From the IMG/VR virus record IMGVR_UViG_2909309443_000004: 35,146 nucleotides of DNA; one strand, written 5' to 3'. The translations under genes and the position numbers were made by a program. Numbering within the stretch: position 1 is the stretch's first letter; the number at the start of each line of letters is the position of its first letter. Positions 5,160-32,473 of this stretch are shown in pieces. The DNA comes from a virus (taxonomy: Duplodnaviria; Heunggongvirae; Uroviricota; Caudoviricetes). The notes under the pieces are model-generated. The model did no database searches and was not told the DNA's origin. It worked only from the letters and a program-made list of their open reading frames with translations.

Positions 5160-5744
5160 TTATTGTTTGCTTTTTTCGTTCTGGTTGATGACAAATTCAA
5201 TGTAACTTTCGATCTTTGCCTTCTCTGTTTCAGGTAACAATGCGTAGCGCGAGCGGTCATAGTTGATAGTCGCGGGGTCGTGCGGGTGAATCAGTAATTC
5301 ATATCCGTGACGCCCAAATGCGGATGCAACATTCTCCAGGGTGGAAATGGAAACGCTGACCTCATTGTTTAACAGGCGGCTGATTGTTACCTGGGCGACG
5401 CCGGATGCGCGGTGAAGTTTTCCCTGCGTTGAAAGGTCGCGGCTTTCGCTCATCCAGCGTTCCAGGTTGTGAGCCGCCAGTTGACCAATGTCGCTTGGTC
5501 CGACAGGCTGAAAACCTTCCTGAGAAAGCGAGCGATCGATATCAAGCCAGTTACGGGGTTTATTGGCGGCAGCTTCAATTTTTCGCGCAACCTGGTCGCC
5601 GATAACCTTCTTGCCAAGAGCCCAGCGGTTTACCAGATTTGCCTGAGTTCCAAGTTTTTCAGCCATCCGCGTCTGAACACCATTGAATTCACGGTCGATC
5701 AAGTCGTTGAGATTTTGCCTGCGGACGTCCTGGATACTTTTCAT
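5160..5744 (-). CDS. Prophage repressor (CI-like), HTH protein without recognisable S24 peptidase domain
   Basis: 194-aa ORF divergent from Cro-like gene; two HTH-like segments (GVQTRMAEKLGTQANLVNRWALGKK and LHRASGVAQVTISRLLNNEVSVSISTLENVASAF); no Ala-Gly/Ser-Lys LexA-like cleavage module evident. Confidence 0.7.
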   Translation of the reverse strand: MKSIQDVRRQNLNDLIDREFNGVQTRMAEKLGTQANLVNRWALGKKVIGDQVARKIEAAANKPRNWLDIDRSLSQEGFQPVGPSDIGQLAAHNLERWMSESRDLSTQGKLHRASGVAQVTISRLLNNEVSVSISTLENVASAFGRHGYELLIHPHDPATINYDRSRYALLPETEKAKIESYIEFVINQNEKSKQ

Positions 5745-6495: not shown

Positions 6496-7311
6496 ATGAG
6501 CAGACATGCAACAGATTGGGCCTGGGAGACAGATCCAGGTAGCTCGTCATTAAAGCTCATACTGCTCTCGATGGCTGACAGAGCCGATGAATATAACCTC
6601 TGCTACCCCAGCATAGAACGCCTCGTTAAAGACACTTGCCTGAATAAAAAAACCGTGCAGGCCGGACTTATATCGCTCATGAAAATGGGGCTTATTTCAG
6701 ATACCGGGGAGAGAAAGGGAGCGACAAAAAGAGTGCGGGTTTTCTCTCTTAATATAACCAAAAACGGGAACATTAAAGGCAACCGAGAGGGGGGCAATGA
6801 ACCCGAAAACGGTAATGTTACCGAAAACGGGAATATACCCAAAAACGGGATGTTGAATGATCCCAAAAACGGGATGTTGAATGATCCCAAAAACGGGATC
6901 CAGAACCAGTCATATAACCAGTCATTTAACCAAGAGAGGGAGAGCAGGACAAAAAACGGGGATTCTGTGCATCATGACCCCGGCGCAAACAACGCCGTGA
7001 TGAATAACTTTGTTCCTCCTGGTGGGCCAGGGCAATTAGGCAAATTTGTCATGCATGAACAATGGCAGCCATCAGATGACTTTCTTCGGAAAAGCTCATT
7101 GCAGGGGATCTACCTGGACAGTCTGCCAACGGCACAGGAACTTGCAGAGTTCAGAATTTACTGGATGGCTGAGGGTAAGGCATACCATCAGGCACAGTGG
7201 GAGCAGAAGCTGGCAAGGCGGCTGCAGATTAGCAGACAGAAGCAATCAACATTACCTGATAACAACGTTCCGCACTGGAACAGCCCTGAAGCATGGGAGG
7301 ATTTCTTGTGA
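6496..7311 (+). CDS. Replication initiator, lambda O-like N-terminal HTH domain with DnaT-like C-terminal region
   Basis: 271-aa ORF; N-terminus (..LKLILLSMADRADEYNLCYPSIERLVKDTCLNKKTVQAGLISLMKMGLI..) typical of phage replisome organiser HTH; contains iteron array in linker. Confidence 0.7.
   Translation: MSRHATDWAWETDPGSSSLKLILLSMADRADEYNLCYPSIERLVKDTCLNKKTVQAGLISLMKMGLISDTGERKGATKRVRVFSLNITKNGNIKGNREGGNEPENGNVTENGNIPKNGMLNDPKNGMLNDPKNGIQNQSYNQSFNQERESRTKNGDSVHHDPGANNAVMNNFVPPGGPGQLGKFVMHEQWQPSDDFLRKSSLQGIYLDSLPTAQELAEFRIYWMAEGKAYHQAQWEQKLARRLQISRQKQSTLPDNNVPHWNSPEAWEDFL
6757..6903. repeat. Iteron array (putative phage origin of replication) inside initiator gene: ~6 copies of CCAAAAACGGGA-like unit, including an exact 24-bp tandem duplication
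   Basis: Direct repeats accaaaaacgggaacatt / cccgaaaacggtaatgtt / accgaaaacgggaatata / cccaaaaacgggatgttgaatgat (x2) / cccaaaaacgggatcc; encode KNGN/ENGN peptide repeats. Confidence 0.65.
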
Positions 7312-8210: not shown

Positions 8211-8523
8211 ATGAGAAAACAGATACAGGCTCTTGGTCGACTCAAAACAGGCCAGATGAACAAAACAGAATCTGCGTATTGCCAGCACCTTGAGCTGCGT
8301 AAACGTGCAGGGGAAATCGCCTGGTATCGATTCACCATCAGTGCCTGCAACACCAGAAGTTCAGGCAGCACCACAGGAGCAGGATGCCGCCGTTGTTGAT
8401 GCCCGCGACGAAGAAACTCGTCGCCGTCGCGCTGCTGCTGGTCGTAGTTCTACGCTGCTTACCGGTTCTCAGGGCGACACATCAACCGCTAATACCAGCG
8501 GTAAAACGCTGCTTGGTCAGTAA
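8211..8523 (+). pseudogene. Probable gene remnant / deletion scar: DUF1064-like N-terminal fragment (8211-~8330) joined out of frame to a Gly/Ser/Arg-rich C-terminal ORF (8290-8523)
   Basis: 8211 ORF begins MRKQIQALGRLKTGQMNKTESAYCQHLELRKRAGEIAWYRF (resembles N-terminus of phage DUF1064 proteins) then loses protein-like sequence; second frame ends ...RRRRAAAGRSSTLLTGSQGDTSTANTSGKTLLGQ; no intact product. Confidence 0.3.
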
Positions 8524-8537
8524 CCGGAGTCATTGAA

Positions 8538-10217
8538 ATGGCGGAAACAACTAAAGAGCGATTGAACAAACAGTTCGCACAACTTGAAAGCGAGCGTCAG
8601 TCGTTCGAGCCGCACTGGCGCGAGTTGAGTGATTACATCAACCCGCGTGGTTCCCGCTTTCTGACTTCTGAGGTCAACCGTAACGATCGACGCAATACAC
8701 GCATTATTGATTCGACCGGGACTATGGCGGCGCGCACTCTCGCCAGCGGCATGATGTCAGGCATCACAAGCCCCGCGCGTCCGTGGTTTCGCCTGGCTAC
8801 GCCAGATCCTGAAATGATGGATTATGGCCCTGTTAAGTTGTGGCTTGAGGCGGTGCAGAACCGCATGAACGATATGTTCAATAAGTCGAATCTCTATCAG
8901 TCGCTGCCGCAGTTATACGGAAGCCTCGGCACATACAGCACTGGCGCAATGGCGGTGCTGGAGGATGACGAGGACATCATTCGTACAATGCCATTCCCGA
9001 TAGGAAGTTACTACCTGGCTAACTCACCTCGTGGCAGTGTGGACACCTGTTTTCGCAAGTTCTCTATGACTGTTCGTCAGCTTGTTCAGGAGTTCGGGCT
9101 AAATAACGTCAGCGAATCCGTAAAAAGCATGTGGGAAAGCGGCACCTACGAGAAGTGGATTGACGTGATGCATTCGGTTTACCCGAACATTGACCGCGAT
9201 ACATCGAAGCTGGATAGCAAGAACAAGCCATTCAAATCGGTTTATTACGAGGTTGGTGGCGATAACGACAAGTTGTTGCGTGAGTCCGGATTTGATGAGT
9301 TTCCAATTATGGCTCCGCGCTGGGAAGTTAACGGCGAAGATGTTTATGGATCATCATGCCCGGGTATGCTGGCGCTTGGAGCTGTTAAGGCATTGCAGCT
9401 TCTCCAGAAGCGCAAGTCGCAGTTGATTGATAAAGCCACCAATCCGCCGATGGTTGCTCCGACTTCCCTCAAGAATCAGCGTGCCTCCCTTCTTCCTGGC
9501 GACATCACGTATATCGATCAGATTACTGGTCAGGATGGTTTCAGGCCTGCTTATCTGGTTAACCCCAGTACAGCAGATTTGGTGGCAGACATTCAGGACA
9601 CTCGTCAAATCATTAACAGCGCCTACTTTGTCGATCTGTTCATGATGTTGCAGAACATCAATACCCGCTCGATGCCTGTTGAAGCGGTGATCGAAATGAA
9701 AGAAGAAAAACTTCTGATGTTGGGGCCGGTTCTGGAGCGTCTGAACGACGAATGTCTTAACCCTCTCATTGACCGCGCTTTCTCGATGATGGTGCGTAAA
9801 AACATGCTGCCGCCACCGCCTGACGCGATGGAAGGTATGCCCCTGAAGGTCGAATACATTTCCGTCATGGCTCAGGCGCAGAAGTCTATCGGCCTGTCCA
9901 GTCTGGCGTCCACGGTTAACTTCATTGGTCAACTTGCGCAAGCGAAACCAGAAGCTCTCGACAAACTCAACGTTGATCAGGCGATCGATGCATTCGCTGA
10001 TATGTCCGGAGTGTCTCCAACCGTCATTGTTCCGCAGGAACAGGTTGAGCAGGCTCGCCAGCAACGGGCACAGCAACAACAGCAGCAACAAATGATGGCG
10101 ATGGGGATGGCGGCGGCACAGGGTGCCAAGACGCTAAGCGAAGCTAAAACTTCGGATCCGAGTGTTTTGTCAGCTATGGCGAATGCAGTTAGTGGTCAGG
10201 GTGGGCAATCACAATGA
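8538..10217 (+). CDS. Portal (head-to-tail connector) protein, T7 gp8-like
   Basis: 559-aa ORF at head of structural module; Gln-rich/Met-Ala-rich C-terminus (QQRAQQQQQQQMMAMGMAAAQGA...) as in T7 gp8; followed by scaffold and capsid genes. Confidence 0.8.
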   Translation: MAETTKERLNKQFAQLESERQSFEPHWRELSDYINPRGSRFLTSEVNRNDRRNTRIIDSTGTMAARTLASGMMSGITSPARPWFRLATPDPEMMDYGPVKLWLEAVQNRMNDMFNKSNLYQSLPQLYGSLGTYSTGAMAVLEDDEDIIRTMPFPIGSYYLANSPRGSVDTCFRKFSMTVRQLVQEFGLNNVSESVKSMWESGTYEKWIDVMHSVYPNIDRDTSKLDSKNKPFKSVYYEVGGDNDKLLRESGFDEFPIMAPRWEVNGEDVYGSSCPGMLALGAVKALQLLQKRKSQLIDKATNPPMVAPTSLKNQRASLLPGDITYIDQITGQDGFRPAYLVNPSTADLVADIQDTRQIINSAYFVDLFMMLQNINTRSMPVEAVIEMKEEKLLMLGPVLERLNDECLNPLIDRAFSMMVRKNMLPPPPDAMEGMPLKVEYISVMAQAQKSIGLSSLASTVNFIGQLAQAKPEALDKLNVDQAIDAFADMSGVSPTVIVPQEQVEQARQQRAQQQQQQQMMAMGMAAAQGAKTLSEAKTSDPSVLSAMANAVSGQGGQSQ

Positions 10218-23050: not shown

Positions 23051-25525
23051 ATGAGACAGGAATGTATACAAGCGGTCCAGCAGGCGGCGCAGCGCACGTT
23101 AACGGCGCGAGAAATACAGAACATTGAAGACCGCATTTATCGAAATATGCGCTCCATTGCTCGTGATGACCCGATGTCGTGGCGACAACTTTCCGAATCA
23201 GAACGGTTGTATCGTGCAGCACAATTGGCATCTGAAGAATTACAGCGAGAAGCGGCATTAAAGAAACGTCGTGTGGCCCTCACTATAGCCGCACGTCAGA
23301 GATTGGATAAATTTATCAATAACTATCAAGGGGCTGATGGGAAACTTGGCGCTCTTAACCGTACTATTGCTTTTAATGCAGACGGTAAATCGAATTTCCT
23401 CTCTGTTGAATCCAGAACAAAAGCCACTCGTGATTATGCATTGAGTCAATTGCAGGAGGCATTTGAAGCAGTTGATCCTCGCTTTTTTGGCCTGTTTGAA
23501 GATGAAGCGGGCGTGCGTGACCTGGTATATGAAATGCGAGGGCAAAATACTGGCAATGCTAAAGCAAGAAAAGGTGCTAAGGCGTGGAGAGAAGTGACAG
23601 ATCTACTTCGCCGCCGGTTTAATGATGCTGGTGGGGACATTGGCTATCTCGAAAACTGGGGGATCCCTCAACATCATTCTATGGAAAAGGTTGGGGCGGT
23701 ATCAAAAGATAAATGGGTTAGCGATGTTATAGGTAAGCTGGATCGCAAATATTATACCCGAGCCGATGGACAACTGATGAACGATGCCGAGTTGTCTGCA
23801 TTTCTTGGAGAGGCTTATAACACGATCGCTACTGGTGGGCTGAATAAGCTTACTGACACCGGAATGCGAATTTCCGGAGCACGTGCTAACCGTGGTAATG
23901 CATCACGACAGATACATTTCAAAGATGCAGATTCCTATCTGCAATATCAGCAACTTTATGGCGATCGCTCTCTATGGGAAATCATGGTCGGTCACCTGGA
24001 AGGTATCAGTAAAGATATTGCACTGGTGGAAACATATGGCCCAAACCCCGATCATGTTTTCCGCTCTCTTCTTGATCAGGTGAAGGCAGAAACGGCAACA
24101 GCTAACCCGAGTAAAACCGGTAGCGTCGAGCGTCTGGCGAACAAAACAGAGAACTTGTACAACTTTATTTCCGGAAAAACACAGCCTGTAGCGAATCCCC
24201 ACATCGCGCGATGGTCTGACAATATCCGCAACTGGCTGGTTGCCAGCAGACTCGGATCCGCGTTGCTGTCATCGTTCTCTGATCTTGGAACCATGTATCT
24301 GTCTGCGAAGGTTACCAACCTTCCAATGAACCAGTTATTTCGCAACCAGCTTGAAGCTATTGACCCAACGAACCGTACTGAGCTTGCGCGGGCGCGCCGC
24401 GCTGGCCTGGCGATGGAATCTCTACTTGGCAGCGTTAACCGCTGGGCGATGGATAATATGGGGCCGTCTGTGTCTCGTTGGGCGGCAACGGCGGTAATGC
24501 GTGCCAGTGGGCTTACAGCATGGTCAGATGCGCACAAGCGCGCCTATGGCGTAACCATGATGGGAAGCCTGGGAGAAGTAGTGTCACGGACACCAGACCT
24601 TCGTAGCCTCGATGACTCTGATTTTCGTATCCTGAAAAGTAAAGGGATTACTGACACAGACTGGAGCGTATGGAAGCTGGCGCAACAGGAGGACTGGGGG
24701 AACGGTAATAATACGATGCTGACACCGGAAAGCATTATGCGTATCCCTGATTCAGCAGTTAAACATCTTGGTGAGCCTGAACGCGTGAAATTTGAGGCAA
24801 TGCGTAAACTGCTCGGTGCCGTAACTGAAGAAGTTGATATGGCTGTTATTACACCGGGCGCACGTGAGCAGATGTTCGTAGGGTCTGGTCTTCAGCGTGG
24901 AACATGGAAAGGTGAATTAACGAGAAGTGTTTTCCTGTTTAAATCGTTCCCTATCTCGGTTGTTATGCGTCACTGGTCACGCGCTATGGGTATGCCGTCT
25001 GCTGGTGGGCGTGCAGCATATATAGCAACGTTTTTAGCAAGCACAACCATGCTTGGTGCTCTTTCCATGCAGATTACTGATCTTATTAATGGGAGAAATC
25101 CAAAGGAAATGACCGGTGACCACATGGTTAAATTCTGGATAAATGCATTTTTAAAAGGTGGCGGGGCTGGGTTGTACGGTGATTTTCTTTTCTCTGACCA
25201 CACTAGGTACGGGAGCGGCGCGCTGGCGTCGATGCTTGGCCCGGTAGCTGGTCTGGTTGATGATGTAGTGAAGATTGCTCAGGGCATACCGTTAAATGCT
25301 GTGGAAGGGAAGAGTGAGCAGACTGGTGGTGATCTGGTGAAGCTGGGGAAAGGTTTGATGCCTGGTGCGAATCTCTGGTACTTGAAGGCGGCTCTCGATC
25401 ACATGATCTTTAACCAGATGCAGGAGTATTTTTCACCAGGTTATTTGCGTAAAATGGAGCAACGTTCGAAGAAAGAGTTTAACCAGACATACTGGTGGCG
25501 ACCACAGGATGTCACTCCGCAATAA
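23051..25525 (+). CDS. Internal virion (ejection) protein, T7 gp16-like C-terminal region
   Basis: 824-aa ORF; C-terminus (..GPVAGLVDDVVKIAQGIPLNAVEGKSEQTGGDLVKLGKGLMPGANLWYLKAALDHMIFNQ..) has the character of gp16-family tails. Confidence 0.55.
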   Translation: MRQECIQAVQQAAQRTLTAREIQNIEDRIYRNMRSIARDDPMSWRQLSESERLYRAAQLASEELQREAALKKRRVALTIAARQRLDKFINNYQGADGKLGALNRTIAFNADGKSNFLSVESRTKATRDYALSQLQEAFEAVDPRFFGLFEDEAGVRDLVYEMRGQNTGNAKARKGAKAWREVTDLLRRRFNDAGGDIGYLENWGIPQHHSMEKVGAVSKDKWVSDVIGKLDRKYYTRADGQLMNDAELSAFLGEAYNTIATGGLNKLTDTGMRISGARANRGNASRQIHFKDADSYLQYQQLYGDRSLWEIMVGHLEGISKDIALVETYGPNPDHVFRSLLDQVKAETATANPSKTGSVERLANKTENLYNFISGKTQPVANPHIARWSDNIRNWLVASRLGSALLSSFSDLGTMYLSAKVTNLPMNQLFRNQLEAIDPTNRTELARARRAGLAMESLLGSVNRWAMDNMGPSVSRWAATAVMRASGLTAWSDAHKRAYGVTMMGSLGEVVSRTPDLRSLDDSDFRILKSKGITDTDWSVWKLAQQEDWGNGNNTMLTPESIMRIPDSAVKHLGEPERVKFEAMRKLLGAVTEEVDMAVITPGAREQMFVGSGLQRGTWKGELTRSVFLFKSFPISVVMRHWSRAMGMPSAGGRAAYIATFLASTTMLGALSMQITDLINGRNPKEMTGDHMVKFWINAFLKGGGAGLYGDFLFSDHTRYGSGALASMLGPVAGLVDDVVKIAQGIPLNAVEGKSEQTGGDLVKLGKGLMPGANLWYLKAALDHMIFNQMQEYFSPGYLRKMEQRSKKEFNQTYWWRPQDVTPQ

Positions 25526-25721
25526 GGAAGTGTTGTGTTTTTAATTATTTTGAGTGTGATAATTTCTGGTGGATTGTTATTTATTGACCGCTACAAATAT
25601 TTTCTTAACCCTCAGACTCAAGCTATTTGCTGGTTCATCTTTGTTGTGCAGGGAGTAGTTCTTGTTGCAAGCCTTATTGAGGGGAGGCCTCTTATTTTTA
25701 CTGGGTAAATTAGGTGACTAC

Positions 25722-26018
25722 ATGCAAGCTATAGGATTCATTGTTTATATCGTCGTTGGTCTTTTTCAGTTGGCAGCAATTATGGCTGGGCTTGAATCAT
25801 GGTGGGGATTGCACTGGATAATTGCAGCCCCCATTGCTTTCATCGTGAGCTATATTCCATTTGTTGGAGCGATTGTTGGTATGGTTGGCGCTGTGGATGT
25901 ATGGCGGTGGGAGTGGTGGCAGGCTGGCCTTCTCTTCTTTGGTGGGATCATCTTTGCTATTGTCTGCGGTGGAATGTCATCATTTTTCGAATGGCTAGCA
26001 TTCAGAAAAGGAACGTGA
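25722..26018 (+). CDS. Small polytopic inner-membrane protein (3 predicted TM helices), function unknown
   Basis: Track ORF 25662..26018 (TTG); ATG 25722 follows AGGTGA; hydrophobic segments IGFIVYIVVGLFQLAAIMAGL / IIAAPIAFIVSYIPFVGAIVGMVGAV / LLFFGGIIFAIVCGG. Confidence 0.5.
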   Translation: MQAIGFIVYIVVGLFQLAAIMAGLESWWGLHWIIAAPIAFIVSYIPFVGAIVGMVGAVDVWRWEWWQAGLLFFGGIIFAIVCGGMSSFFEWLAFRKGT

Positions 26019-26049
26019 CATGTCACAGGCCGCTTTCGCGGCCTTGTTT

Positions 26050-26211
26050 TTAACGAATGCCACCGCCTCCCGGGCGGGAATCCGCAGAACGCCCACCGCA
26101 GCGGGAGCCGTCAGCGGCAGTATCGCTGTCGTGCTGACAACGACCGGCAAAGGCCTGAGTTGAAGCTACCAGAGACAACAAAACGAACAGTGCAGCAAAT
26201 GCTTTTTTCAT
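26050..26211 (-). CDS. Small secreted Cys-containing peptide (53 aa precursor)
   Basis: Internal Met of track ORF 26050..26283 gives MKKAFAALFVLLSLVASTQAFA signal peptide followed by 31-aa Gly/Arg/Asp-rich peptide with 2 Cys; weak RBS. Confidence 0.35.
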   Translation of the reverse strand: MKKAFAALFVLLSLVASTQAFAGRCQHDSDTAADGSRCGGRSADSRPGGGGIR

Positions 26212-26282
26212 TGTGAAATTTCCATCTATAAGCCACCTCAATGTGGCGTCAATGAGTGTAGCACTGACTTTTGTTTCGTCCA

Positions 26283-26304
26283 CAAAAAATCCCGCAGCGC
26301 GGGC
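26283..26304 (-). terminator. Rho-independent terminator after 147-aa gene
   Basis: Minus-strand hairpin CCCGC-gct-GCGGG followed by TTTTTTG, 2 nt after stop of 26305..26748 ORF. Confidence 0.5.
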
Positions 26305-26748
26305 TTATTCTTCTTCTTCATCATTAAAAAGCGGATTGTTGTTTCCATCTGATGAAAGGAAAGGTATGTGTTCTCTTGAAAATCCAACAATGACAATTTC
26401 ATTATCATTTTTTGCATAATGAATGCATTCATTAGAATGCATTCCGCCAGGGTTGAAATTTAAGTTAATGGTATAATTCTTAAATGTGTTTGGATACCAT
26501 GTTGGCCCACAATGATAATGCCAATAATTCTCTTGCTCATAATTGTCTGAGCCTGGAATTTTATCATGGTTATCATCAACCCACGAGGGCTTGTTTTTTC
26601 CAACAAGCGCCCTTCCATTGGCAACATCCTCTAAAAACCTTTGTATGATTTTTATTTCATCATCAGTAAGGAAAGGTCCGTCTACAGCGAAAGGGGTGTT
26701 GCTTTCCCCATGTAGAAAACTATTAGATATTCTAATGTTAAACTTCAA
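26305..26748 (-). CDS. Unknown AT-rich moron protein with acidic C-terminal tail (147 aa)
   Basis: TTG start 7 nt after AGGAG; markedly lower GC than surroundings; His/Cys cluster (YWHYHCGP...HSNECIHY) and terminal FNDEEEE; no recognised family. Confidence 0.55.
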   Translation of the reverse strand: MKFNIRISNSFLHGESNTPFAVDGPFLTDDEIKIIQRFLEDVANGRALVGKNKPSWVDDNHDKIPGSDNYEQENYWHYHCGPTWYPNTFKNYTINLNFNPGGMHSNECIHYAKNDNEIVIVGFSREHIPFLSSDGNNNPLFNDEEEE

Positions 26749-26768
26749 GGAAAACTCCTGATGTGCTT

Positions 26769-26936
26769 CTATTTGGAGCGAAATGCCGCCTTGAAGTCGC
26801 TAAAAGATGTTCCTGTCTGGTAAACCATATCCTTGTCGCGCTCTTTGCTTGCGCGACCAAGCATAACTTTTCCAATGACATCCCAGCATTGCTTGGCTTG
26901 TTCATTGTGCTGAGTACGATTTTTCAACGCTGTCAT
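26769..26936 (-). CDS. Small basic protein (55 aa), first gene of two-gene operon with 26305..26748
   Basis: Manually translated MTALKNRTQHNEQAKQCWDVIGKVMLGRASKERDKDMVYQTGTSFSDFKAAFRSK; GGAGG 6 nt upstream of ATG; operator palindrome 12 bp upstream. Confidence 0.4.
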   Translation of the reverse strand: MTALKNRTQHNEQAKQCWDVIGKVMLGRASKERDKDMVYQTGTSFSDFKAAFRSK

Positions 26937-26948
26937 ATCGCGCCTCCT

Positions 26949-26963
26949 TTACCTTTAAGGTAA
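26949..26963. promoter_or_regulatory. Operator palindrome TTACCTTTAAGGTAA overlapping promoter of 26936<-operon
   Basis: Perfect TTACC-N5-GGTAA; upstream (minus-strand sense) TTGGCG ... TAATAT hexamers at -35/-10-like spacing. Confidence 0.5.
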
Positions 26964-27029
26964 TATTACGCGAATCTACATCACATCGCCAATGATTATT
27001 TTAAAGGCACATCCCTGTGCCGCCGCCCG

Positions 27030-27749
27030 TCAGAAGAACCCTGCCTTGTCGTTGATGTACTCCGCGTGGGTCTGGATATCACGCAGGCATTTGCTCACAC
27101 CGACGATGTAGCAGAACATGGTGGTCAGTTCCGCCGCCGCGCCCGATACGTCATGCCCGTCTTCCTGTAACTGGTTCAGCAAATTCATCAGCAGTGAGTT
27201 CTCCGTCAGGCCGAGAACACCAGACGGTGAATGAATCAGGCTACGGTAGCCGGGCTTCAGTGGGGCGCTGTAGGTTTTGTTCTCTATCTTCATTGCCTGC
27301 ATCACTGCTGATGCTGTGGCGTTGGCTACCTGGTCGGCAACCATCTTTATGCGTTCTTCTTGCGGGAGCGAGTTTTTAATGTAACTTCCGGTGCGGCGGA
27401 TCTGAGGAAGAACCTCACCTGTAACCCATTTACGAAAGCGGTATGGGATAGTGCCTGGTGTCACCGCATCGCGGCAGCGGAGGATCAGTGTGTAGAGGCC
27501 TGACTCGTTGATAATATTGGTTTCGCCTTGACGGCCTAAGTTAAATTTAGCCCTTTCATCATCATCAAGAGATTTTATTGACATAGTGGGGTTTGTCAGT
27601 TGAAGAGCTTTAATAACGTCTTTGGCAACAAACCAAGGATTAATCGCAAATCCAACTCTCCTCAGAGTTATAACGCTCAAACGCTTTACACATACTTTGT
27701 GTTGGTGCTGGAGGGCGTTCAAGGGCAGCCATGACTTGCTCCCAAACAT
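27030..27749 (-). CDS. Bro-N-like antirepressor-type protein with C-terminal domain paralogous to 28868..29125 product
   Basis: Track ORF 27030..27758; Bro-N-like segment GFAINPWFVAKDVIKAL...SGLYTLILRCRDAVTPGTIPYRFRKWVTGEVLPQIRRTG; C-terminal ~90 aa share clear similarity with ORF 28868..29143. Confidence 0.6.
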   Translation of the reverse strand: MFGSKSWLPLNALQHQHKVCVKRLSVITLRRVGFAINPWFVAKDVIKALQLTNPTMSIKSLDDDERAKFNLGRQGETNIINESGLYTLILRCRDAVTPGTIPYRFRKWVTGEVLPQIRRTGSYIKNSLPQEERIKMVADQVANATASAVMQAMKIENKTYSAPLKPGYRSLIHSPSGVLGLTENSLLMNLLNQLQEDGHDVSGAAAELTTMFCYIVGVSKCLRDIQTHAEYINDKAGFF

Positions 27750-27924
27750 CCTCTTCAACGATCAAGCGGCGATGTTCATTAATAACTGTTTCAGCTCTAA
27801 AAGTCGTAGACTCCATTACAAATTGAGATACGGACACTTTAGAAATAACAGCAGCTTCTTCGATACGGCGCTTCGCAGCTTCGGGCAGACGAAACTCGAA
27901 CCGCTCCTTTCTTACTGCGTTCAT
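27640..27924 (-). CDS. DUF1778-like ribbon-helix-helix protein (TacA-antitoxin-like / Arc-like regulator)
   Basis: Track ORF 27640..27948 (GTG); ATG 27924 lies 5 nt after AGGAG; sequence MNAVRKERFEFRLPEAAKRRIEEAAVISKVSVSQFVMESTTFRAETVINEHRRLIVEEDVWEQVMAALERPPAP fits DUF1778 RHH pattern; no GNAT toxin partner present. Confidence 0.6.
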   Translation of the reverse strand: MNAVRKERFEFRLPEAAKRRIEEAAVISKVSVSQFVMESTTFRAETVINEHRRLIVEEDVWEQVMAALERPPAPTQSMCKAFERYNSEESWICD

Positions 27925-27988
27925 AACAACTCCTGAGCTAATGCTCACAGTGGTTTATACCACATAACGATATGCACGGTACGGGAAT

Positions 27989-28096
27989 TTACCGTACAGG
28001 TAATGATAAGCGCGAAGAAATATTAAAATCAACCTTATTTGGTTGATTGCGTTTAACGCTTGATCACCTGAAAGCAAGATATTACCTTTAAGGTAA
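27989..28096. promoter_or_regulatory. Operator pair TTACCGTACAGGTAA (27989-28003) and TTACCTTTAAGGTAA (28082-28096) in divergent promoter region
   Basis: Two perfect palindromes between divergent RHH/Bro-N operon and membrane zinc-ribbon gene. Confidence 0.5.
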
Positions 28097-28116
28097 TGTT
28101 ATTGTGAGGAAAAGCA

Positions 28117-28845
28117 ATGGAAGTTTTCTGGATAGTTGTTGGTGTGGTTGCGGTGATTATTTACGTTATCAACCAGAACAAGACTAAGATCTCTGATCGT
28201 ACGGTCGTTAATCATAACAAAACGATAAAGACCGAAGATGGGGAGATAACGATTAATCGTACACAGGTGATAGAACACACCTCTACTCAGTTTCAAAAAA
28301 CTGGAGGTAATGCGCCTAATATTTCCGCACCTCCTGCTTATGATAGTGCGGTAATCCAGACATATTATAAACAGCAGGAGTTAGCAAAAGAGAGGCAACT
28401 GATTCAGCCAAAGCCGTTTACAACTGAGATTCCACCTGGAGTGTCAACGCGTCCGGCATATCATGGAAGATTCCCTGGTGATGACATATCGTCTCAGTCA
28501 TCTAAAAAAGCACCTCAGGCAATATCAGAGCCAGCAAGAATACCTTCTGTATCGCCGCAAAAAGAAGAATCAGCTAACAGAGTTTCAAGTGGTAGCAAGC
28601 AGTGCTTGCGATGCAGAATAAACCTTCCATATGAAAAATTCAGGAAATCGTCAAAAAATCCAGATGGATTGACTAAATGGTGTGCAAGGTGTCTCGATGG
28701 CCCAAAGAATACACGCCATATGAAGTGGTGCCCAATTTGTAATGTCCGCAGAAAACGAACCAGCTTTTACCCTAATAATCAAAATGCGGACGGCTTAATG
28801 GCATGGTGCAAAACGTGCTGGGATGAGCACAAAGCGAAACGATAG
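28117..28845 (+). CDS. Membrane-anchored protein with duplicated C-terminal zinc-ribbon motifs, function unknown
   Basis: 242-aa ORF; N-terminal TM helix (FWIVVGVVAVIIYVI), long low-complexity linker, then two repeats CLRCRINLPYEKFRKSSKNPDGLTKWCARC and CPICNVRRKRTSFYPNNQNADGLMAWCKTC. Confidence 0.6.
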   Translation: MEVFWIVVGVVAVIIYVINQNKTKISDRTVVNHNKTIKTEDGEITINRTQVIEHTSTQFQKTGGNAPNISAPPAYDSAVIQTYYKQQELAKERQLIQPKPFTTEIPPGVSTRPAYHGRFPGDDISSQSSKKAPQAISEPARIPSVSPQKEESANRVSSGSKQCLRCRINLPYEKFRKSSKNPDGLTKWCARCLDGPKNTRHMKWCPICNVRRKRTSFYPNNQNADGLMAWCKTCWDEHKAKR

Positions 28846-28867
28846 GCCGCTCTTGCGGCCTTTAAAT

Positions 28868-29125
28868 TTACCGGGTTTGTTTTCGTAATTGTTCGGCACA
28901 ATAGTCGAGATGTGTTTGCAGATCCCGCATAGACATCTGTGAGCTGGTGACGTAGTTAATCAGTGCAGTCAGTTCGGCAAGTGGGCCATCGACATTAAAT
29001 CCATCCTTATCGAGATCCCGGAGTAATTTCATCAAGTGCGATCCCTCCACCAGTGACCTGACGCCTCCCGGCGTGTGAATCCTTTCGGTAAATCCGTCTT
29101 CCAGTGGATAGTGATACCGCTGCAT
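28868..29125 (-). CDS. Small protein paralogous to C-terminal domain of Bro-N-like protein
   Basis: Track ORF 28868..29143 (TTG); ATG at 29125 with GGAG RBS; ..LMKLLRDLDKDGFNVDGPLAELTALINYVTSSQMSMRDLQTHLDY.. aligns with ..LMNLLNQLQEDGHDVSGAAAELTTMFCYIVGVSKCLRDIQTHAEY.. of 27030 gene. Confidence 0.55.
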   Translation of the reverse strand: MQRYHYPLEDGFTERIHTPGGVRSLVEGSHLMKLLRDLDKDGFNVDGPLAELTALINYVTSSQMSMRDLQTHLDYCAEQLRKQTR

Positions 29126-29201
29126 CTTATCTTCTCCATGCAATAACTGTATATTTATACAGTATCAAATAATTTGTTTGCTATCCAGCACGTTTTGCAA
29201 A

Positions 29202-29216
29202 TTACCCGAAAGGTAA
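29202..29216. promoter_or_regulatory. Operator palindrome TTACCCGAAAGGTAA between 29125<- gene and tailspike
   Basis: Perfect TTACC-N5-GGTAA in 195-bp divergent intergenic region. Confidence 0.45.
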
Positions 29217-29320
29217 TATCTATTCATATTCACAGCCTTTCTATCCATATGTGGTTTTTCAGGTAATAGAATAACCAGATATGCGGCGCAACGGGTGCTG
29301 CGACTATCTGGAGATTTAAC

Positions 29321-31921
29321 ATGACGGTCTCAACCGAAGTTGACCACAACGAATACACCGGTAACGGCGTTACGACATCATTTCCGTATACCTTCCGTAT
29401 TTTCAAAAAAACCGACCTGGTTGTTCAGGTGTCTGATCTGAACGGGAACGTAACAGAATTGGTTCTGGATACCGGTTATAAGGTAACTGGAGCGGGCACT
29501 TATAGTGGCGGTGAAGTGGTTCTCCCGTCGCCGCTTGCTGCTGGCTGGCGAATTACGATAGAGCGTGTGCTTGATGTGGTGCAGGAGACTGATCTTCGCA
29601 ATCAGGAAAAATTTTTCCCCGAAGTTCATGAAGATGCATTTGACTACCTGACGATGCTGATCCAGCGATGTTTTGGGTGGTTCAGACGTGCATTGATGAA
29701 ACCCTCGTTGCTTGCAAAATATTACGATGCAAAGCAAAACAGAATATCTAACCTTGCTGATCCATCACTTGAGCAGGACGCTGTAAATAATCGCTCAATG
29801 CGTAATTATGTCGATGCTGCAATCGCCGGGGTTGTTGGTGGTTTTGGTTGGTTTATTCAGTATGGTTCTGGAGCAGTATACCGAACGTTCCAGGATAAGA
29901 TGCGGGATGAAGTAAATATTCGTGATTTTGGAGCAGGAGATTCAGGTGAAGTTACAGATGCTATTTTGAAGGCTGTTGCAGCTACTAATGGCACCATTAT
30001 TATCCCGGATGGAAATTATGTTTCTACTCCAACAGTAACGCAGACTCCGAACGTTATGAAATTGCTTTCACGAGCAGAGTTTAGAGGTTCTTTGACCATC
30101 AATCTTCCTGTTGGAACTGTTAACCTATCAGAAAAGACGCTAATCAGATCACAAAATGTTCATAAACTTTCTATTTCTGGTATTACGTATTCAACTACGC
30201 TAACTGGCTTAGTGGGTGTATCTGGTATCCCCAAATCATACCTAGTTACGCTCTCTCTGGCTGATGCTTCAAACGTTTCTGTAGGCGACGTCGTGATGAT
30301 TCGTCACGATATAACGGGGACAGGAGGATATCACATCCATTGTGGCGGATGGGTTGTGACTGCCGTGTCTGGCAAAAATGTTACCGTAAAAAACACCTGC
30401 CACCTGTCTGAATTACCAACGTCAACGATTACAGGCGGAACAGTAGTCATACTAAAAAGTATTCTGAGATATGCCGGATGTGATGGGATTGTGGCTGCAG
30501 GTGCTGGGTGCATTAAGACAATAAACGGTGTCGCAATTGTTGGTGATTATGACCTTGTGGCCGGCACTGGAACTATTGGTGCGCATGGTTTCTCCCTCAC
30601 TACTCCAGACATTACTGTTGCCATCCCAGACCCATCCAACGTGGTTTTTGATGCGTCAGGATGTATAGCAATTGGGCCTGATCTGGCGATCGTTGGGTTC
30701 GGAGAACAGGGGGTCGTGGCTTCAGAAAGATCTGGTGTGGTTTCAAACTTTATATCTTCATGCTCTAACCGCAAGCGCGGTGTATATTCTGAAGGCGCTC
30801 ATATACGCGGTAAATTTATGCTTTGCTCAGGGAATGGTGAGGATGGGATTATTGCTGATATTGGTGGCGCAATACAGGCTAACGGATCAGTTTGCTCTGG
30901 CAATGGGTTGAATGGGTTCTGGTCTTTTAATCATAGTTTTTTGGGGGCACCAGGGGGGATTGCGTGCGGTAACTATACCAATGGTGGTGAATCACGCGGA
31001 CCAGGTGCATTAAATCTGCAAAATGGGAAGAGCTATTTAAACAGGCTAATTGGTGTAACCGCTTCAAATAGCGGTGCAGTTATTTTCACTAACTCAACTG
31101 CCACACAAAATGGCACGGATGGTCTGGTTGCTGTTTACGATGGCTTAATATCTGCCGCCAATGCCAATTCAACGAGCAACGGTCGCTATGGGGTTAACGT
31201 AACTCACGCAAAAATTGTGCTTAAAGGCTCTGGAGGAGTGACTGGTAACACAACGGGAGATTACATCGATAACGGCGAGGGCACAATAATCAAGCCAGAT
31301 GGTACTATGCTGCCGAGGAATGCTGGCCCGCAAAGCATCCTTTCTATTCGTAACGCCAATCTTTCCGGTGCTGATGTCACGGCATCATCAATAGGCGATC
31401 TCACCGTCTCGCAAAGAAACACATCCTCGGGTGCATTAACCCCCCTGTATGTATTCAAATCTGACGGAACCCAGCATCCAGTCAATGACGCCACGCAGAA
31501 CCTTGGCAGGGCAAGCAATCGCTACAATGTTGGTTTCTTCGCTGGCGGAACACAGTCAACTTCAGATGCCACACTTAAAGACCCTATCCGGGAGTTCAAT
31601 CAGGCCGAACTCAATGCAGCAATGCGCATCTCGAAAATGTTTGGATTCTGGACGTGGCTTGATGATGACAGTAAGCGTTTGCATGCAGGGACTACGGTTC
31701 AAGCAGTGTTAGCTGTTCTGGAAGAGGAAGGTCTAGACTGGCGGAGCTATGGATTTATCTGTTTTGATGAGTGGGATGATGAATATACCCCGGTAACCAT
31801 TGAGGTAGATGGCGAAGTCGTTGAAACTGGCGAACTGCAATTAGTACGTGAGTCTGGTTCTGTATGGCAATTACGCGATCAGGAATTTGACAGATTCGTG
31901 ATGCGTGGACTTTCCGAATGA
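29321..31921 (+). CDS. Tailspike protein: T7 gp17-like N-terminal anchor, central beta-helix-like receptor-binding/depolymerase region, C-terminal intramolecular chaperone (peptidase S74-like)
   Basis: 866-aa ORF; N-terminus MTVSTEVDHNEYTGNGVTTSFPYTFRIFKKTDLVVQV typical of podovirus fibre/spike anchor; Gly/Ser/Asn-rich repetitive middle; C-terminal S-D-A-T-L-K autoproteolysis-like motif followed by conserved chaperone block. Confidence 0.8.
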   Translation: MTVSTEVDHNEYTGNGVTTSFPYTFRIFKKTDLVVQVSDLNGNVTELVLDTGYKVTGAGTYSGGEVVLPSPLAAGWRITIERVLDVVQETDLRNQEKFFPEVHEDAFDYLTMLIQRCFGWFRRALMKPSLLAKYYDAKQNRISNLADPSLEQDAVNNRSMRNYVDAAIAGVVGGFGWFIQYGSGAVYRTFQDKMRDEVNIRDFGAGDSGEVTDAILKAVAATNGTIIIPDGNYVSTPTVTQTPNVMKLLSRAEFRGSLTINLPVGTVNLSEKTLIRSQNVHKLSISGITYSTTLTGLVGVSGIPKSYLVTLSLADASNVSVGDVVMIRHDITGTGGYHIHCGGWVVTAVSGKNVTVKNTCHLSELPTSTITGGTVVILKSILRYAGCDGIVAAGAGCIKTINGVAIVGDYDLVAGTGTIGAHGFSLTTPDITVAIPDPSNVVFDASGCIAIGPDLAIVGFGEQGVVASERSGVVSNFISSCSNRKRGVYSEGAHIRGKFMLCSGNGEDGIIADIGGAIQANGSVCSGNGLNGFWSFNHSFLGAPGGIACGNYTNGGESRGPGALNLQNGKSYLNRLIGVTASNSGAVIFTNSTATQNGTDGLVAVYDGLISAANANSTSNGRYGVNVTHAKIVLKGSGGVTGNTTGDYIDNGEGTIIKPDGTMLPRNAGPQSILSIRNANLSGADVTASSIGDLTVSQRNTSSGALTPLYVFKSDGTQHPVNDATQNLGRASNRYNVGFFAGGTQSTSDATLKDPIREFNQAELNAAMRISKMFGFWTWLDDDSKRLHAGTTVQAVLAVLEEEGLDWRSYGFICFDEWDDEYTPVTIEVDGEVVETGELQLVRESGSVWQLRDQEFDRFVMRGLSE

Positions 31922-32059
31922 TTGAGCTTTATCGAGGATAAATTTGCATCTTAAATTCATGAAATAGATAAAATTAGGTTGAGTAACAATTATCCGTAAA
32001 TGGTTTATTGTGTATGATGAACTCACCAACTAAGGGGGGTTCTTTATGCACATTAAACG

Positions 32060-32473
32060 GTGGTCACTATGTCGCACACGTTAACCACGGGAACGCTGAA
32101 TCAGGGGCTTAGCCTGAGCGCGCTAATGTCTGTGGTCGCTGGCGTGCCGCCTGAAGTGGCTTTAGGGGCGCTCGCTGGTGCGGTAATTTTTGTTACCTCT
32201 GCTGTCGAGTATCCGATCCGCCGCCGGGTTCTCCTGTCGATGCTCAGCTTTCTTTGTGGCCTTCTCTTTTACAAACCAGCAGCATCAATTCTTATCGGCA
32301 TAGCCAGCCTGATACCTACCATCACGCAGGATTCTTTCGAGAAAGGGATTGTTTTCTCTGCTGGCGCATTCGTGTCAGCAATCGTCGCAGTACGAATTGG
32401 CATCTGGCTCTATCACCGTTCCGATAATCCACGCGAGTTAATTCCGGGGAGAAAAGACGATGGTAACGCATGA
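32060..32473 (+). CDS. Holin-like membrane protein
   Basis: 137-aa ORF (GTG 32060 or ATG 32069) with multiple hydrophobic segments, first gene of lysis cassette upstream of endolysin. Confidence 0.55.
   Translation: MVTMSHTLTTGTLNQGLSLSALMSVVAGVPPEVALGALAGAVIFVTSAVEYPIRRRVLLSMLSFLCGLLFYKPAASILIGIASLIPTITQDSFEKGIVFSAGAFVSAIVAVRIGIWLYHRSDNPRELIPGRKDDGNA

Follow-up and report, generated by a model that had tools for sequence, protein, structure and literature searches.

An antirepressor control region expanded by exchangeable cargo in a Uetakevirus prophage of Escherichia coli

The interval from 25,526 to 29,320 is the antirepressor ("immunity I" or immI-type) control region of a Uetakevirus prophage, expanded by exchangeable cargo. 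The window, meaning the whole 35,146-nt stretch of DNA that was analyzed, is an E. coli prophage of this genus (epsilon15/phiV10/SPC32H-like). The interval, called the island below, is bordered by the last internal virion protein gene on one side and by the tailspike gene on the other, a site that is a variable accessory hotspot. The reading that we favor, and judge to be reasonably likely, is that cargo cassettes occupy fixed expression slots in an immI-type antirepressor region and are controlled by the phage proteins Rep and Ant. Part of the region has already been described, and among its cargo are a toxin-like gene pair of an unnamed family and a stray antitoxin gene.

The island holds eight small genes on both strands, as the preliminary description of this DNA had stated, and all are intact open reading frames, for which RefSeq has calls at matching positions in E. 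coli genomes of identical sequence (Table 1). The GC content is 0.40 to 0.44 inside the island versus about 0.50 in its flanks. Prophages of ETEC-type E. coli carry the region with 100% identity, and phiV10, TL-2011b, and phiv142-3 match it in part. A partial match is present in 561 of 5426 complete E. coli genomes and at least 80% of the island in 22 of them, with individual cassettes found in 15, 77, and 129 genomes; the preliminary description had proposed such a comparison to see whether the island is a variable hotspot, and it is. In SPC32H and PAS61, which are minimal relatives, a gene for a 46-aa membrane protein and ant are all that the interval contains. The cargo added here is therefore about 3.0 to 3.3 kb, less than the 3.8-kb insertion originally proposed.

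Table 1. Features of the island, and the repressor gene outside it, by position in the window
Feature	Position	Strand	Sequence	Remarks
rep	5160..5744	-		outside island; homologue of the SPC32H Rep repressor
98-aa gene	25722..26018	+		phrog_3075; multi-TM, 3-4 hydrophobic stretches
Hairpin	26027..26044		AGGCCGC-TTTC-GCGGCCT	GC-rich, between convergent genes; terminator-like, bidirectional
53-aa gene	26050..26211	-		phrog_14503, PHROG 'moron' category
Hairpin	26291..26303	-	CCCGCGCTGCGGG + T run	terminator-like; ends 55/147 operon
147-aa gene	26305..26748	-		GC 0.35; pI 4.8; EEEE tail; phrog_5954
55-aa partner gene	26769..26936	-		phrog_8607; basic; 20 nt upstream of 147-aa gene
Operator A	26949..26963		TTACCTTTAAGGTAA	13 nt 5' of 55-aa start codon
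Bro-N::Ant gene	27030..27680	-		216 aa; Pfam Bro-N
tacA	27640..27924	-		94 aa; Pfam TacA1/DUF1778, ribbon-helix-helix
Swapped segment	27643..27985			replaces isrK + C4 RNA leader of relatives
Inverted repeat	27979..27997		GTACGG-N7-CCGTAC	inherited from tacAT promoter; overlaps operator B
Operator B	27989..28003		TTACCGTACAGGTAA	hybrid site
Inverted repeat	28027..28048		AATCAACC-N6-GGTTGATT	between divergent operators B and C
Operator C	28082..28096		TTACCTTTAAGGTAA	start codon of 242-aa gene 20 nt away, downstream
242-aa gene	28117..28845	+		phrog_6762; N-terminal TM helix; 8 Cys, two CxxC...CxxC units
Hairpin	28844..28861		AGGCCGC-TCTT-GCGGCCT	between convergent 242-aa gene and ant; terminator-like
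ant	28868..29125	-		85 aa, SPC32H-type antirepressor
LexA box	29147..29162		CTGTATATTTATACAG	22 nt 5' of ant start codon
Operator D	29202..29216		TTACCCGAAAGGTAA	between ant and tailspike gene

The island Ant is 87% identical to the Ant of SPC32H (GenBank: 'ant: anti-repressor protein') and matches chain E of PDB 5D50 with an E-value of 3.5e-46. Its gene is kept beside the tailspike gene in all relatives examined. The island proteins had been taken to be different from those of known systems and undescribed, which fails for this protein and, through a shared domain, for the Bro-N protein. The same 85-aa product had been listed as a small paralog; its relationship to the Bro-N protein is real, with 41% identity to residues 135 to 212, but it is better understood as the characterized LexA-controlled antirepressor Ant. 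The LexA box upstream of ant had been missed. It is conserved in SPC32H and in a Pectobacterium prophage, and the order upstream of ant, with the LexA box followed by the operator, is the same as in SPC32H. The product of rep matches PDB 5D50_A over its full length (E = 3.5e-42). In SPC32H, Rep and Ant reportedly form a lytic switch (Kim & Ryu, J Virol, 2013; Kim et al., PNAS, 2016), and the structures from this phage (PDB 5D50/5D4Z) are reported to show Rep being removed from DNA by Ant.

Exact copies of the palindrome TTACC-N5-GGTAA occur four times in the island (operators A to D), upstream of every transcription unit but the 53-aa gene, for which a scan of the window found none. The whole window contains 11 sites with at most one mismatch versus 0.62 expected, a number reached by none of 100 shuffles, and seven sites of this type flank rep (5026, 5088, 5800, 5848, 6185, 8131, and 8193). 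Measured from site center to the nearest start, the distances are 20, 72, 28, and 84 nt for the four genes of the island and 112 nt in the case of the tailspike gene, and from this position the palindromes appear to sit on promoters. A consensus scan found only one promoter-like site that adjoins an operator. Four promoters bearing the operator had been proposed; the four palindromes stand, and their placement on promoters is inferred from position. Operator B is a hybrid that reads ATTACC|TGTAC|GGTAA on the minus strand, which is the transcribed reading. Its upstream ATTACC half continues the phage-backbone sequence, as in 118UI, and its downstream TGTACGGTAA half comes from the native tacAT promoter. 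Directly adjoining the site is a -10-like TATCAT, with a TTGATT -35 at a distance of 18 nt on the upstream side. Operator D has a counterpart in SPC32H, phiV10, and PAS61.

The distribution of the palindrome in SPC32H is informative about its binding protein. That genome has 18 sites versus 0.75 expected, 10 of them exact. Six of them surround rep and the divergent downstream gene in a classical OL/OR layout, five being exact and the sixth having one mismatch. Two more lie further downstream (35972 and 36034), and the remaining sites precede early and late units and ant. The palindrome clusters around rep and cro both there and in the prophage of the window, with further sites elsewhere in both genomes. 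As SPC32H has the sites but none of the cargo, the protein that binds them should be encoded by the phage backbone. Given this distribution and the reported work on SPC32H, TTACC-N5-GGTAA is very probably the Rep operator, and Rep presumably binds the copies in the island.

We give very little credence to the alternative that the motif is not primarily a Rep operator, and is instead the site of Cro or of a host or cassette-borne factor, or mainly a conserved recombination joint for cassette swaps. In its favor, the points where homology between relatives breaks off (26948 and 27986) coincide exactly with the motif. The motif has also traveled with a homologous cassette into Klebsiella lambdoid prophages, where an identical ATTACCATTAAGGTAAT lies upstream of the cassette; these prophages have an unrelated CI repressor of the S24 type and an immunity region without the motif, and their copies are not explained by a pure Rep operator reading. 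Against this alternative stand the many exact sites and the OL/OR layout around rep in cargo-free SPC32H, and the size of the palindrome, which suits a dimeric helix-turn-helix repressor.

An operator or a terminator marks the borders of the cargo slots. Alternative cargoes in relatives begin just past the palindrome, and those in the slot of the 55/147 pair end at the same terminator. The left edge of this slot is the hairpin that ends the 55/147 operon, where homology to TL-2011b ends at 26331 and homology to EC.W1-9 at 26316, and the right edge is operator A, with TL-2011b homology resuming at 26948. The 147-aa gene has a TTG start and an AGGAG Shine-Dalgarno sequence, and the motifs GKNKPSW, WHYHCG, and S124..H127.P129 are invariant in its family across genera. 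The AlphaFold2 model of the protein has a pLDDT of 89.6, and its Foldseek list is led by RelE/ParE-type toxin families at E-values of 0.3 to 2. It belongs to an unnamed family and is predicted to have a RelE/ParE-superfamily fold. This assignment is a structural one; the protein has no Pfam match, and comparisons by Pfam, PDB sequence, and hhalign give no link to YafO. The 55-aa partner is conserved in two other genomic contexts. A Pectobacterium homologue (47% identical) lies directly upstream of a 147-aa family member, and in Klebsiella prophages the upstream gene recognizably shares the C-terminal part of the 55-aa protein (23%). The 55-aa protein is a candidate antitoxin-like partner. The charge is inverted relative to canonical RelE systems, with an acidic 'toxin' and a basic partner (pI 9.8). 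In TL-2011b, a YafO_toxin gene (Pfam 26.3 bits) occupies this slot, together with a small upstream gene. The 55/147 pair is most likely a toxin-antitoxin-like module with a RelE-fold, His-rich, nuclease-like protein.

The Bro-N::Ant protein has its Bro-N domain at residues 8 to 92, and residues 135 to 211 match Ant (E = 1e-13); it is a candidate second antirepressor. Overexpression of ORF4 of phage ZX5, a related Bro-N antirepressor, lowered lysogeny (PMC9782041), and control by RNA and repressor, of the isrK/C4 type, has been described for such antirepressors in Gifsy-1 and P1 (PMC8201110, PMC4825925). Six relatives (phiV10, TL-2011b, 118UI, EC.W1-9, phiv142-3, and a Pectobacterium prophage) have isrK and C4 before the Bro-N gene at 61 to 81 bits (Rfam); in the window they are absent even at E <= 1. 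The leader has been replaced by a segment with tacA, and the early recognition of a DUF1778-like ribbon-helix-helix gene overlapping a Bro-N-like gene holds, with Pfam scores of 69.6 bits (cut-off 21) and 65.9 bits and an overlap of 41 nt. The island TacA is 84% identical to genuine tacA products whose genes precede a GNAT toxin gene, the former toxin frame is now continued by the Bro-N frame, and complete E. coli genomes gave no near-identical DNA match to the cognate GNAT toxin gene. The island tacA is an orphan antitoxin gene that has lost its GNAT toxin. The inverted repeat overlapping operator B, which reads TGTACGG-N7-CCGTACA in the tacAT promoter (L016/L017), is presumed to be the TacA operator. 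The swap used two microhomology junctions; of 5426 complete E. coli genomes only 15 have the swapped segment, each with at least 99% identity. The tacA::Bro-N junction is of recent origin and limited to a single lineage. As the Bro-N start codon is also uncertain (TTG 27680 in RefSeq, with ATG 27749 possible), the operon may be impaired.

This junction bears on a rather improbable reading, in which the island is for the most part decaying baggage of a defective prophage. The tacA::Bro-N chimera would then be a recombination scar without a present function, as other units might be too. Its illegitimate, microhomology-mediated origin and narrow distribution would agree with decay, as would the missing toxin gene and the uncertain start codon. 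The prophage of the window has also had its terminase genes and neighboring genes deleted, so a present-day lytic-cycle function is doubtful for this copy. However, decay sits poorly with eight intact reading frames of eight, with the invariant motifs that the 147-aa and 242-aa families keep across genera, with the perfect TTACC-N5-GGTAA retained by operator B despite its hybrid origin, and with the presence of the same cassettes in the isolated phages phiv142-3, TL-2011b, and EC.W1-9.

The other cargo is predicted to be envelope-associated. The 242-aa protein is made up of a TM helix, a conserved juxtamembrane beta-hairpin, a disordered linker, and two C4 zinc-ribbon units; no Pfam family reached threshold, and prophages of Serratia and Providencia have homologues in the equivalent place. 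The 98-aa protein would become 118 aa if TTG at 25662 were used, and its slot in phiV10, SPC32H, and PAS61 holds the 46-aa protein, which has 2 TM segments. The 53-aa peptide has a signal-peptide-like N-terminus (..QAFA|GRC) and 2 Cys and is predicted to be secreted or membrane-associated. Its gene has no operator and is the sole island candidate for expression in a lysogen.

Three membrane or secreted products of eight would be in keeping with a lysogenic-conversion, superinfection-exclusion, or defense island, whose cargo is expressed by the resident prophage and protects the lysogen as P22 sieA does. We consider this unlikely. The location between ejection-protein genes and the tailspike gene is that of P22 immI/sieA, the GC content is below that of the backbone, the 53-aa gene of the 'moron' family has no operator and is enclosed by two terminator-like hairpins, and abortive infection often relies on toxin-antitoxin-like pairs. 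Yet three transcription units carry the rep/cro palindrome near their start, so the cargo is predicted to be silent in lysogens, and this speaks against a constitutive, sieA-like superinfection exclusion. The 147-aa family also has members in the nin region of lambdoid prophages, a region with early lytic transcription, and PADLOC defense models matched none of the island proteins. Integration of ZX5, a related phage with different cargo, gave no host phenotype (PMC9782041).

Under the favored reading of Rep/Ant-controlled cargo, Rep on the operators would silence the Bro-N::Ant operon, the 55/147 pair, and the zinc-ribbon gene in the lysogen. DNA damage would remove LexA, Ant would be made, and Rep would be taken off DNA as in SPC32H, so that the island units would be derepressed together with the early genes. 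The Bro-N::Ant protein, with its Rep-binding Ant domain, may then provide a feed-forward push. In relatives, the isrK/C4 RNA leader would gate translation of the Bro-N antirepressor. Here, because an orphan tacA that keeps its own palindrome has taken the place of that leader, the tacA-Bro-N operon is probably under joint repression by Rep and autorepression by its TacA-like ribbon-helix-helix product, in an Arc-like arrangement. Expression of the 55/147 pair would be limited to the lytic phase, with possible uses in host shut-off, in competition with other phages, or in counter-defense.

Several known systems resemble parts of this region. As in the Rep-Ant system of SPC32H, ant is the immediate upstream neighbor of the tailspike gene and is encoded on the other strand, with the LexA box just upstream of it and TTACC-N5-GGTAA further upstream; unlike SPC32H, the island adds about 3 kb of cargo, including a second Ant-domain protein. 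With the immI of P1/P7 (C1-controlled c4 antisense RNA - icd - ant) and the isrK-orf45-anrP genes of Gifsy-1, the island shares the order of repressor-type operator, leader, and antirepressor gene, although its leader is the protein-coding tacA in place of isrK/C4. Compared with TacAT type II systems, the island keeps a full-length TacA with a Pfam match and the promoter palindrome of the closest tacAT relatives, but has a Bro-N antirepressor in the downstream frame where the toxin gene would be. RelE/ParE toxins (RelE, YoeB, YafQ, and HigB) match the predicted fold of the 147-aa protein, which likewise has a small gene directly upstream and conserved His and Lys on the sheet and after the last strand, and the YafO-family gene of TL-2011b is a recognized toxin gene in the same slot. 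However, the protein is about 55 residues longer than RelE and has no sequence-level membership in a named family, and the promoter of the pair has a phage-repressor-type operator and not an evident antitoxin operator. The immI of P22 (mnt / arc-ant, sar RNA, and sieA) lies at the same genome position, between ejection-protein genes and tailspike gene 9, and this parallel has proved stronger than first claimed, as the island has true antirepressor genes, a ribbon-helix-helix gene before one of them, and repressor-type operators. In both, a ribbon-helix-helix gene comes first in the antirepressor operon and a palindromic site overlaps the promoter region. The two differ in that no mnt or sieA homologue was noticed in the island and no sar RNA was found in the window, although sar is present in TL-2011b. 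The island ribbon-helix-helix protein is of the TacA/DUF1778 family and not Arc or Mnt, and control of the island is apparently exerted by the operator of the main repressor together with LexA.

Chromosomal prophages of human ETEC-type E. coli, O6:H16 strains included, match the 4-kb segment from 25400 to 29400 at 100% identity. The segment is matched piecewise by the Uetakevirus phages phiV10, TL-2011b, phiv142-3, HEMP4, and ZX5, and more distantly by the Salmonella phages SPN1S, SPC32H, and epsilon15; island cassettes do occur in isolated phages. RefSeq places eight genes between the gene for an 824-aa "phage protein", whose phiV10 homologue is labelled "virion structural protein", and the tail fibre/tailspike gene, at the coordinates assigned in the preliminary description. 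Every one of these ORFs is intact, and domain and property checks agree with the eight small genes proposed there. The GC content of the island is below that of its flanks. In SPC32H and PAS61, the interval from the 824-aa gene to the tailspike is made up of a 46-aa membrane-protein gene and the antirepressor gene ant, nothing else, so these two genes are the core and about 3 kb in the window is added cargo. The comparison with related prophages suggested earlier thus bears out a variable island, minimal in SPC32H and PAS61 and with other slot cargo in TL-2011b and EC.W1-9. An unannotated 57-aa ORF with a GTG start and two hydrophobic stretches is also found directly after the 824-aa gene, at 25535-25708, and the membrane-protein gene that follows it is given different starts in annotations of identical DNA, for products of 98, 118, or 144 aa. 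At the other end, an imperfect 21-nt inverted repeat (29270-29316, 71% complementary) is located just upstream of the tailspike start codon.

Genes of the island, with the properties or matches of their products
Product	Coordinates	Strand	Basis
98 aa, 3-4 hydrophobic stretches	25722-26018	+	protein properties
53 aa, signal-peptide-like N-terminus, two Cys	26050-26211	-	protein properties
147 aa, GC 0.35, pI 4.8, EEEE tail	26305-26748	-	protein properties
55 aa, basic, 20 nt upstream of 147-aa gene	26769-26936	-	protein properties
216 aa, Pfam Bro-N 65.9 bits, 41-nt overlap with 94-aa gene	27030-27680	-	Pfam
94 aa, Pfam TacA1/DUF1778 69.6 bits	27640-27924	-	Pfam
242 aa, one TM helix, eight Cys	28117-28845	+	protein properties
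85 aa, 41% identity to Bro-N protein C-terminus	28868-29125	-	sequence comparison

The right-hand end of the island is, as judged by homology, a known system, the SPC32H-type Ant-Rep pair. The 85-aa protein is 87% identical to the SPC32H product annotated as "ant: anti-repressor protein" (KC911856; tblastn) and matches chain E ("Anti-repressor protein") of PDB entry 5D50 with an E of 3.5e-46 (phmmer). The product of rep (5160-5744, minus strand) matches chain A ("Repressor") of the same entry over its full length, residues 1-190, with an E of 3.5e-42. The ant ATG is preceded, at a distance of 22 nt, by a LexA-box consensus, CTGTATATTTATACAG (29147-29162), and an equivalent putative LexA box, ACTGTATGTTTATACAGT, is found upstream of SPC32H ant. 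The order of operator, LexA box, and ant is shared with SPC32H and with the Pectobacterium relative. In SPC32H, ant is reportedly repressed by LexA, the SOS response is said to leave Rep uncleaved, and Rep is reportedly taken off the DNA by tetrameric Ant. The identity of the 85-aa protein as an SPC32H-type Ant (5D50_E), together with the Ant domain of the Bro-N protein described below, contradicts the earlier view that the island proteins are undescribed.

The palindrome TTACC-N5-GGTAA occurs exactly at 26949, 27989, 28082, and 29202 (operators A to D). The window contains 11 sites at no more than one mismatch against 0.62 expected, a count that no shuffle reaches, and the proposal that this motif stands on the island units is upheld. 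The centers of the sites lie 20, 72, 28, and 84 nt upstream of the nearest start for four island genes, and 112 nt upstream for the tailspike gene. The site at 27989-28003 is identical to the motif flanking rep and cro and abuts a -10-like hexamer with a TTGATT -35. Of the seven sites outside the island (5026, 5088, 5800, 5848, 6185, 8131, and 8193), two stand on the left side of rep and two in the gap that separates it from the divergent cro-like gene; a single site follows cro, and the last two come ahead of the next rightward unit. Around rep and cro the layout is like that of classical OL/OR. The flanks of these seven sites extend the consensus to (A/T)TTACC-N5-GGTAAT. SPC32H, which is without the cargo, has 18 sites against 0.75 expected, three of them to the left of rep, another three in the space separating it from the divergent downstream gene, and one ahead of ant; the others lie elsewhere in the genome. 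Because SPC32H has sites without cargo, the binder should be encoded by the phage backbone. The 55-aa protein was considered as the main binder and rejected, since SPC32H has sites and no such cassette. The distribution of the sites makes Rep the most likely binder of the palindrome. The operator-bearing island units would then be repressed in the lysogen and derepressed along with the early genes.

The motif is also found outside this phage group. In the nin region of Klebsiella lambdoid prophages, homologues of the 55- and 147-aa proteins form part of a 95/102/161-aa cassette, and an exact ATTACCATTAAGGTAAT (L006-L008 4391-4405; L011 9391-9405) precedes that cassette by about 40 nt. The CI of these prophages is of the S24 type, and the motif is absent from their immunity region. 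Between the divergent operators B and C of the window, an inverted repeat, AATCAACC-N6-GGTTGATT, is present at 28027-28048. Strain 118UI has kept this repeat, and the Klebsiella site has a similar element next to it, TTCAACC-N3-GGTTGAA.

The Bro-N protein matches SPC32H Ant over its residues 135-211 with an E of 1e-13, which argues that it carries the Rep-binding module. Its gene is thus a putative second antirepressor gene, one in which the control module has been swapped. Overexpression of the island-encoded Bro-N antirepressor of phage ZX5 cut prophage titres from 10^9 to 10^6 (PMC9782041). In six relatives (phiV10, TL-2011b, strain 118UI, EC.W1-9, phiv142-3, and a Pectobacterium prophage), the Bro-N gene is preceded by isrK (RF01394, 68-77 bits) and the C4 antisense RNA (RF01695, 61-81 bits), and in each a TTACC-N5-GGTAA site is present just upstream. 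The arrangement follows the same logic as isrK-orf45-anrP of Gifsy-1 (PMC4825925). At gathering score the whole window is free of Rfam matches, and neither isrK nor C4 turns up within 25400-29400 at E ≤ 1; the search of the island at E ≤ 1 returned just two hits, which is chance level. TL-2011b carries, in addition to its isrK/C4-Bro-N module and small ant gene, a second, P22-type immI module in its island (L003 1780-2964), made up of a sar RNA (44.8 bits), an Arc-like repressor gene, and ant.

What stands in place of the leader can be read from the alignment with strain 118UI, which is perfectly identical to the window up to 27642 and again from 27986, with 27643-27985 replaced. The replacement segment is the tacA gene, whose product scores 69.6 bits against a cut-off of 21 for PF08681. 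Its closest relatives share 84% protein identity (P0158) and 81% DNA identity over window positions 27630-27998, and are genuine tacA genes, each followed by an overlapping 176-aa GNAT toxin gene. In the alignment of the junctions (A3), the toxin gene is replaced from its start codon on. The upstream crossover falls in the microhomology ACGGTAA, so that operator B (TTACC-TGTAC-GGTAA) is half phage backbone and half native tacAT promoter, and the tacAT palindrome GTACGG-N7-CCGTAC is kept in the window. At the downstream junction, the frame once set by the toxin start codon is carried on by Bro-N, with the microhomology AAT.C.TGG. The swapped segment is present in 15 of 5426 complete E. coli genomes, in all at an identity of at least 99%, which points to a recent, lineage-restricted event; at megablast level, the toxin DNA of a genuine tacAT relative (L016) has no match in any complete E. 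coli genome. The swap created an Arc-ant-like operon, with the ribbon-helix-helix gene first and the antirepressor gene second, in which the TacA-like protein may autoregulate the operon or neutralise GNAT toxins. Replacement of isrK/C4 RNA control of an antirepressor by a captured antitoxin gene of the ribbon-helix-helix type is a natural control swap, and offers a snapshot of how Arc-like regulators could arise out of toxin-antitoxin modules.

Cargo is exchanged at the 55/147 pair as well, where the slot is the interval made up of operator, cargo, and terminator. In TL-2011b this slot holds a gene above the Pfam YafO_toxin threshold and a small upstream gene, and in EC.W1-9 a DUF2335 membrane-protein gene and a small gene, with the operator just upstream of each alternative cargo. 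Homology to the window ends at the terminator, at 26316 or 26331 (EC.W1-9, TL-2011b), and picks up again, in TL-2011b, at the operator (26948) and, in EC.W1-9, some 30 nt past that site (26993). These temperate podophages exchange cargo as cassettes, with a conserved operator on one side and a conserved terminator on the other.

Close homologues of the 147-aa protein number 36 and come from Enterobacterales and Pasteurellaceae, and an exhaustive profile search extended the family to 121 clusters at 50% identity. Three motifs are invariant in it, GKNKPSW, WHYHCG, and S..H.P. Pfam gave no match for any of 27 family members at E ≤ 1 and no family for distant members from a search of 1.8 billion proteins, NCBIfam gave none for the 147-aa protein, and a profile search of PDB sequences with the family returned noise only. 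A direct relationship to YafO was rejected, as BLASTP against TL-2011b gp44 gave an E of 1.3, hhalign a probability of 0.2, and no family member has a Pfam YafO match. In Foldseek, RelE/ParE-type toxin families rank first, with non-significant E values of 0.3-2 and target-normalised TM scores of 0.5-0.67. The protein is predicted to have a RelE/ParE fold, and its relation to RelE is structural only. An apparent loss of the gene in phiv142-3 was also rejected: the gene is intact there (L012 2405-2986) and merely unannotated, GenBank listing a 52-aa ORF in another frame (Orf10).

A partner gene is also found upstream of the family gene in the Pectobacterium prophage (47% identity), where the genome position is unchanged. 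The 102-aa protein of the Klebsiella nin region has the partner as its C-terminal part (23% identity), and in Pasteurellaceae the similarity to the 55-aa protein is weak. The conserved partner, the alternative cargo, and the slot boundaries together lead us to read the pair as a predicted toxin-antitoxin-like cassette in a repressor-gated slot. Caution is called for as the charge pattern is inverted, with an acidic 147-aa protein and a basic 55-aa partner (pI 9.8). The promoter of the pair is apparently gated by the phage repressor and not by an antitoxin of its own.

The 242-aa family is conserved across Enterobacterales, and its alignment and model contain an invariant TM helix, a juxtamembrane hairpin, and two C4 units. 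Homologues occupy the same position in Serratia and Providencia prophages; a membrane zinc-ribbon protein has kept its genome position in prophages of several genera. When the model was searched by fold, the only similarities returned were weak ones, to zinc fingers and HNH scaffolds. Columns that never vary carry Cys, Asp, Gly, Trp, Lys, and the like; none of them is His, and H201, located between the zinc-ribbon units, reaches only about 90% conservation. Without a conserved catalytic His, the family departs from the catalytic signature of HNH/endonuclease VII-type nucleases. The 53-aa peptide belongs to a PHROG family of the class "moron, membrane associated protein". Flanked by two terminator-like hairpins and with no operator upstream, its gene is the prime candidate for being expressed in the lysogen. 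The 98-aa membrane protein belongs to a PHROG family with no assigned function and has a sub-threshold holin-family match, nothing else.

The preliminary description saw the island as the likeliest place for superinfection exclusion or defence. This is not supported: PADLOC-DB v2 has no defence family for any of the eight proteins at E ≤ 0.1, and an NCBIfam scan of all eight gave nothing useful. The broader interpretation in that description survives in part: hotspot, immI-like nature, and operator control are supported, and neither the view of the genes as undescribed nor that of the island as the likeliest exclusion or defence locus is. A block of "hypothetical proteins" becomes a largely explained regulatory region, made up of a LexA-Ant-Rep switch and a second antirepressor.

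Homologues of terS, terL, gp3, EaE, gp47, and gp49 are found nowhere in the window by tblastn. At 8211-8540, the homologue of the endonuclease-like SPC32H_045 breaks off at 8333, after residue 41, and is fused to a homologue of the small gene found ahead of the portal gene (8538-10217). The terminase genes and their neighbours have been lost, with about 5.8 kb deleted relative to SPC32H. As the terminase genes are absent, the prophage cannot package DNA, which limits the direct biological weight of this copy. Elsewhere, the tailspike-to-holin interval (31921-32060) has no O-antigen modification genes (oac, glucose translocase), which are present in phiV10, SPC32H, and TL-2011b, and a replication-region protein (6496-7311) contains short tandem peptide repeats (NGN..ENGN, PKNGMLND twice).

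What is new here, and testable, is the repressor-gated RelE-fold pair, the replacement of isrK/C4 by tacA, and the zinc-ribbon membrane family, none of which overturns current understanding. It is conceivable, if rather improbable, that all three belong to one scheme, in which Uetakeviruses keep repressor-gated slots by ant for swapped lytic-phase weapons: an inverted-charge RelE-fold pair, a TacA with a double role, and an envelope zinc-ribbon protein. Under such a scheme, the pair, active only after derepression, could work in shut-off of the host or of a competing phage, or against a defence system. The orphan TacA could regulate the antirepressor in an Arc-like way and, being phage-borne, also neutralise GNAT (TacT-type) toxins, and the membrane-anchored double zinc-ribbon protein would provide a further undescribed function at the envelope.

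Among known systems, immI of the P1/Gifsy type has a C4/isrK leader upstream of the antirepressor gene, which the window does not have. Likeness to the P22 arc-ant module is one of analogous architecture only, as the ribbon-helix-helix gene of the window is Pfam TacA1 and not Arc or Mnt, and sar, present in TL-2011b, has no match. In comparison with TacAT systems, the DUF1778/TacA antitoxin is present, but the adjacent GNAT toxin gene is absent and the Bro-N gene is downstream instead. The 242-aa protein resembles HNH/endonuclease VII-type nucleases in its zinc scaffold only. The 147-aa protein is not by sequence a member of RelE, ParE, HigB, YafQ, YoeB, or YafO, but a small co-oriented partner gene is conserved with it, as in modules of the RelE/ParE superfamily. 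Of the Rep/Ant switch of SPC32H, Ant, the cognate Rep, and the putative LexA box are all present in the window.
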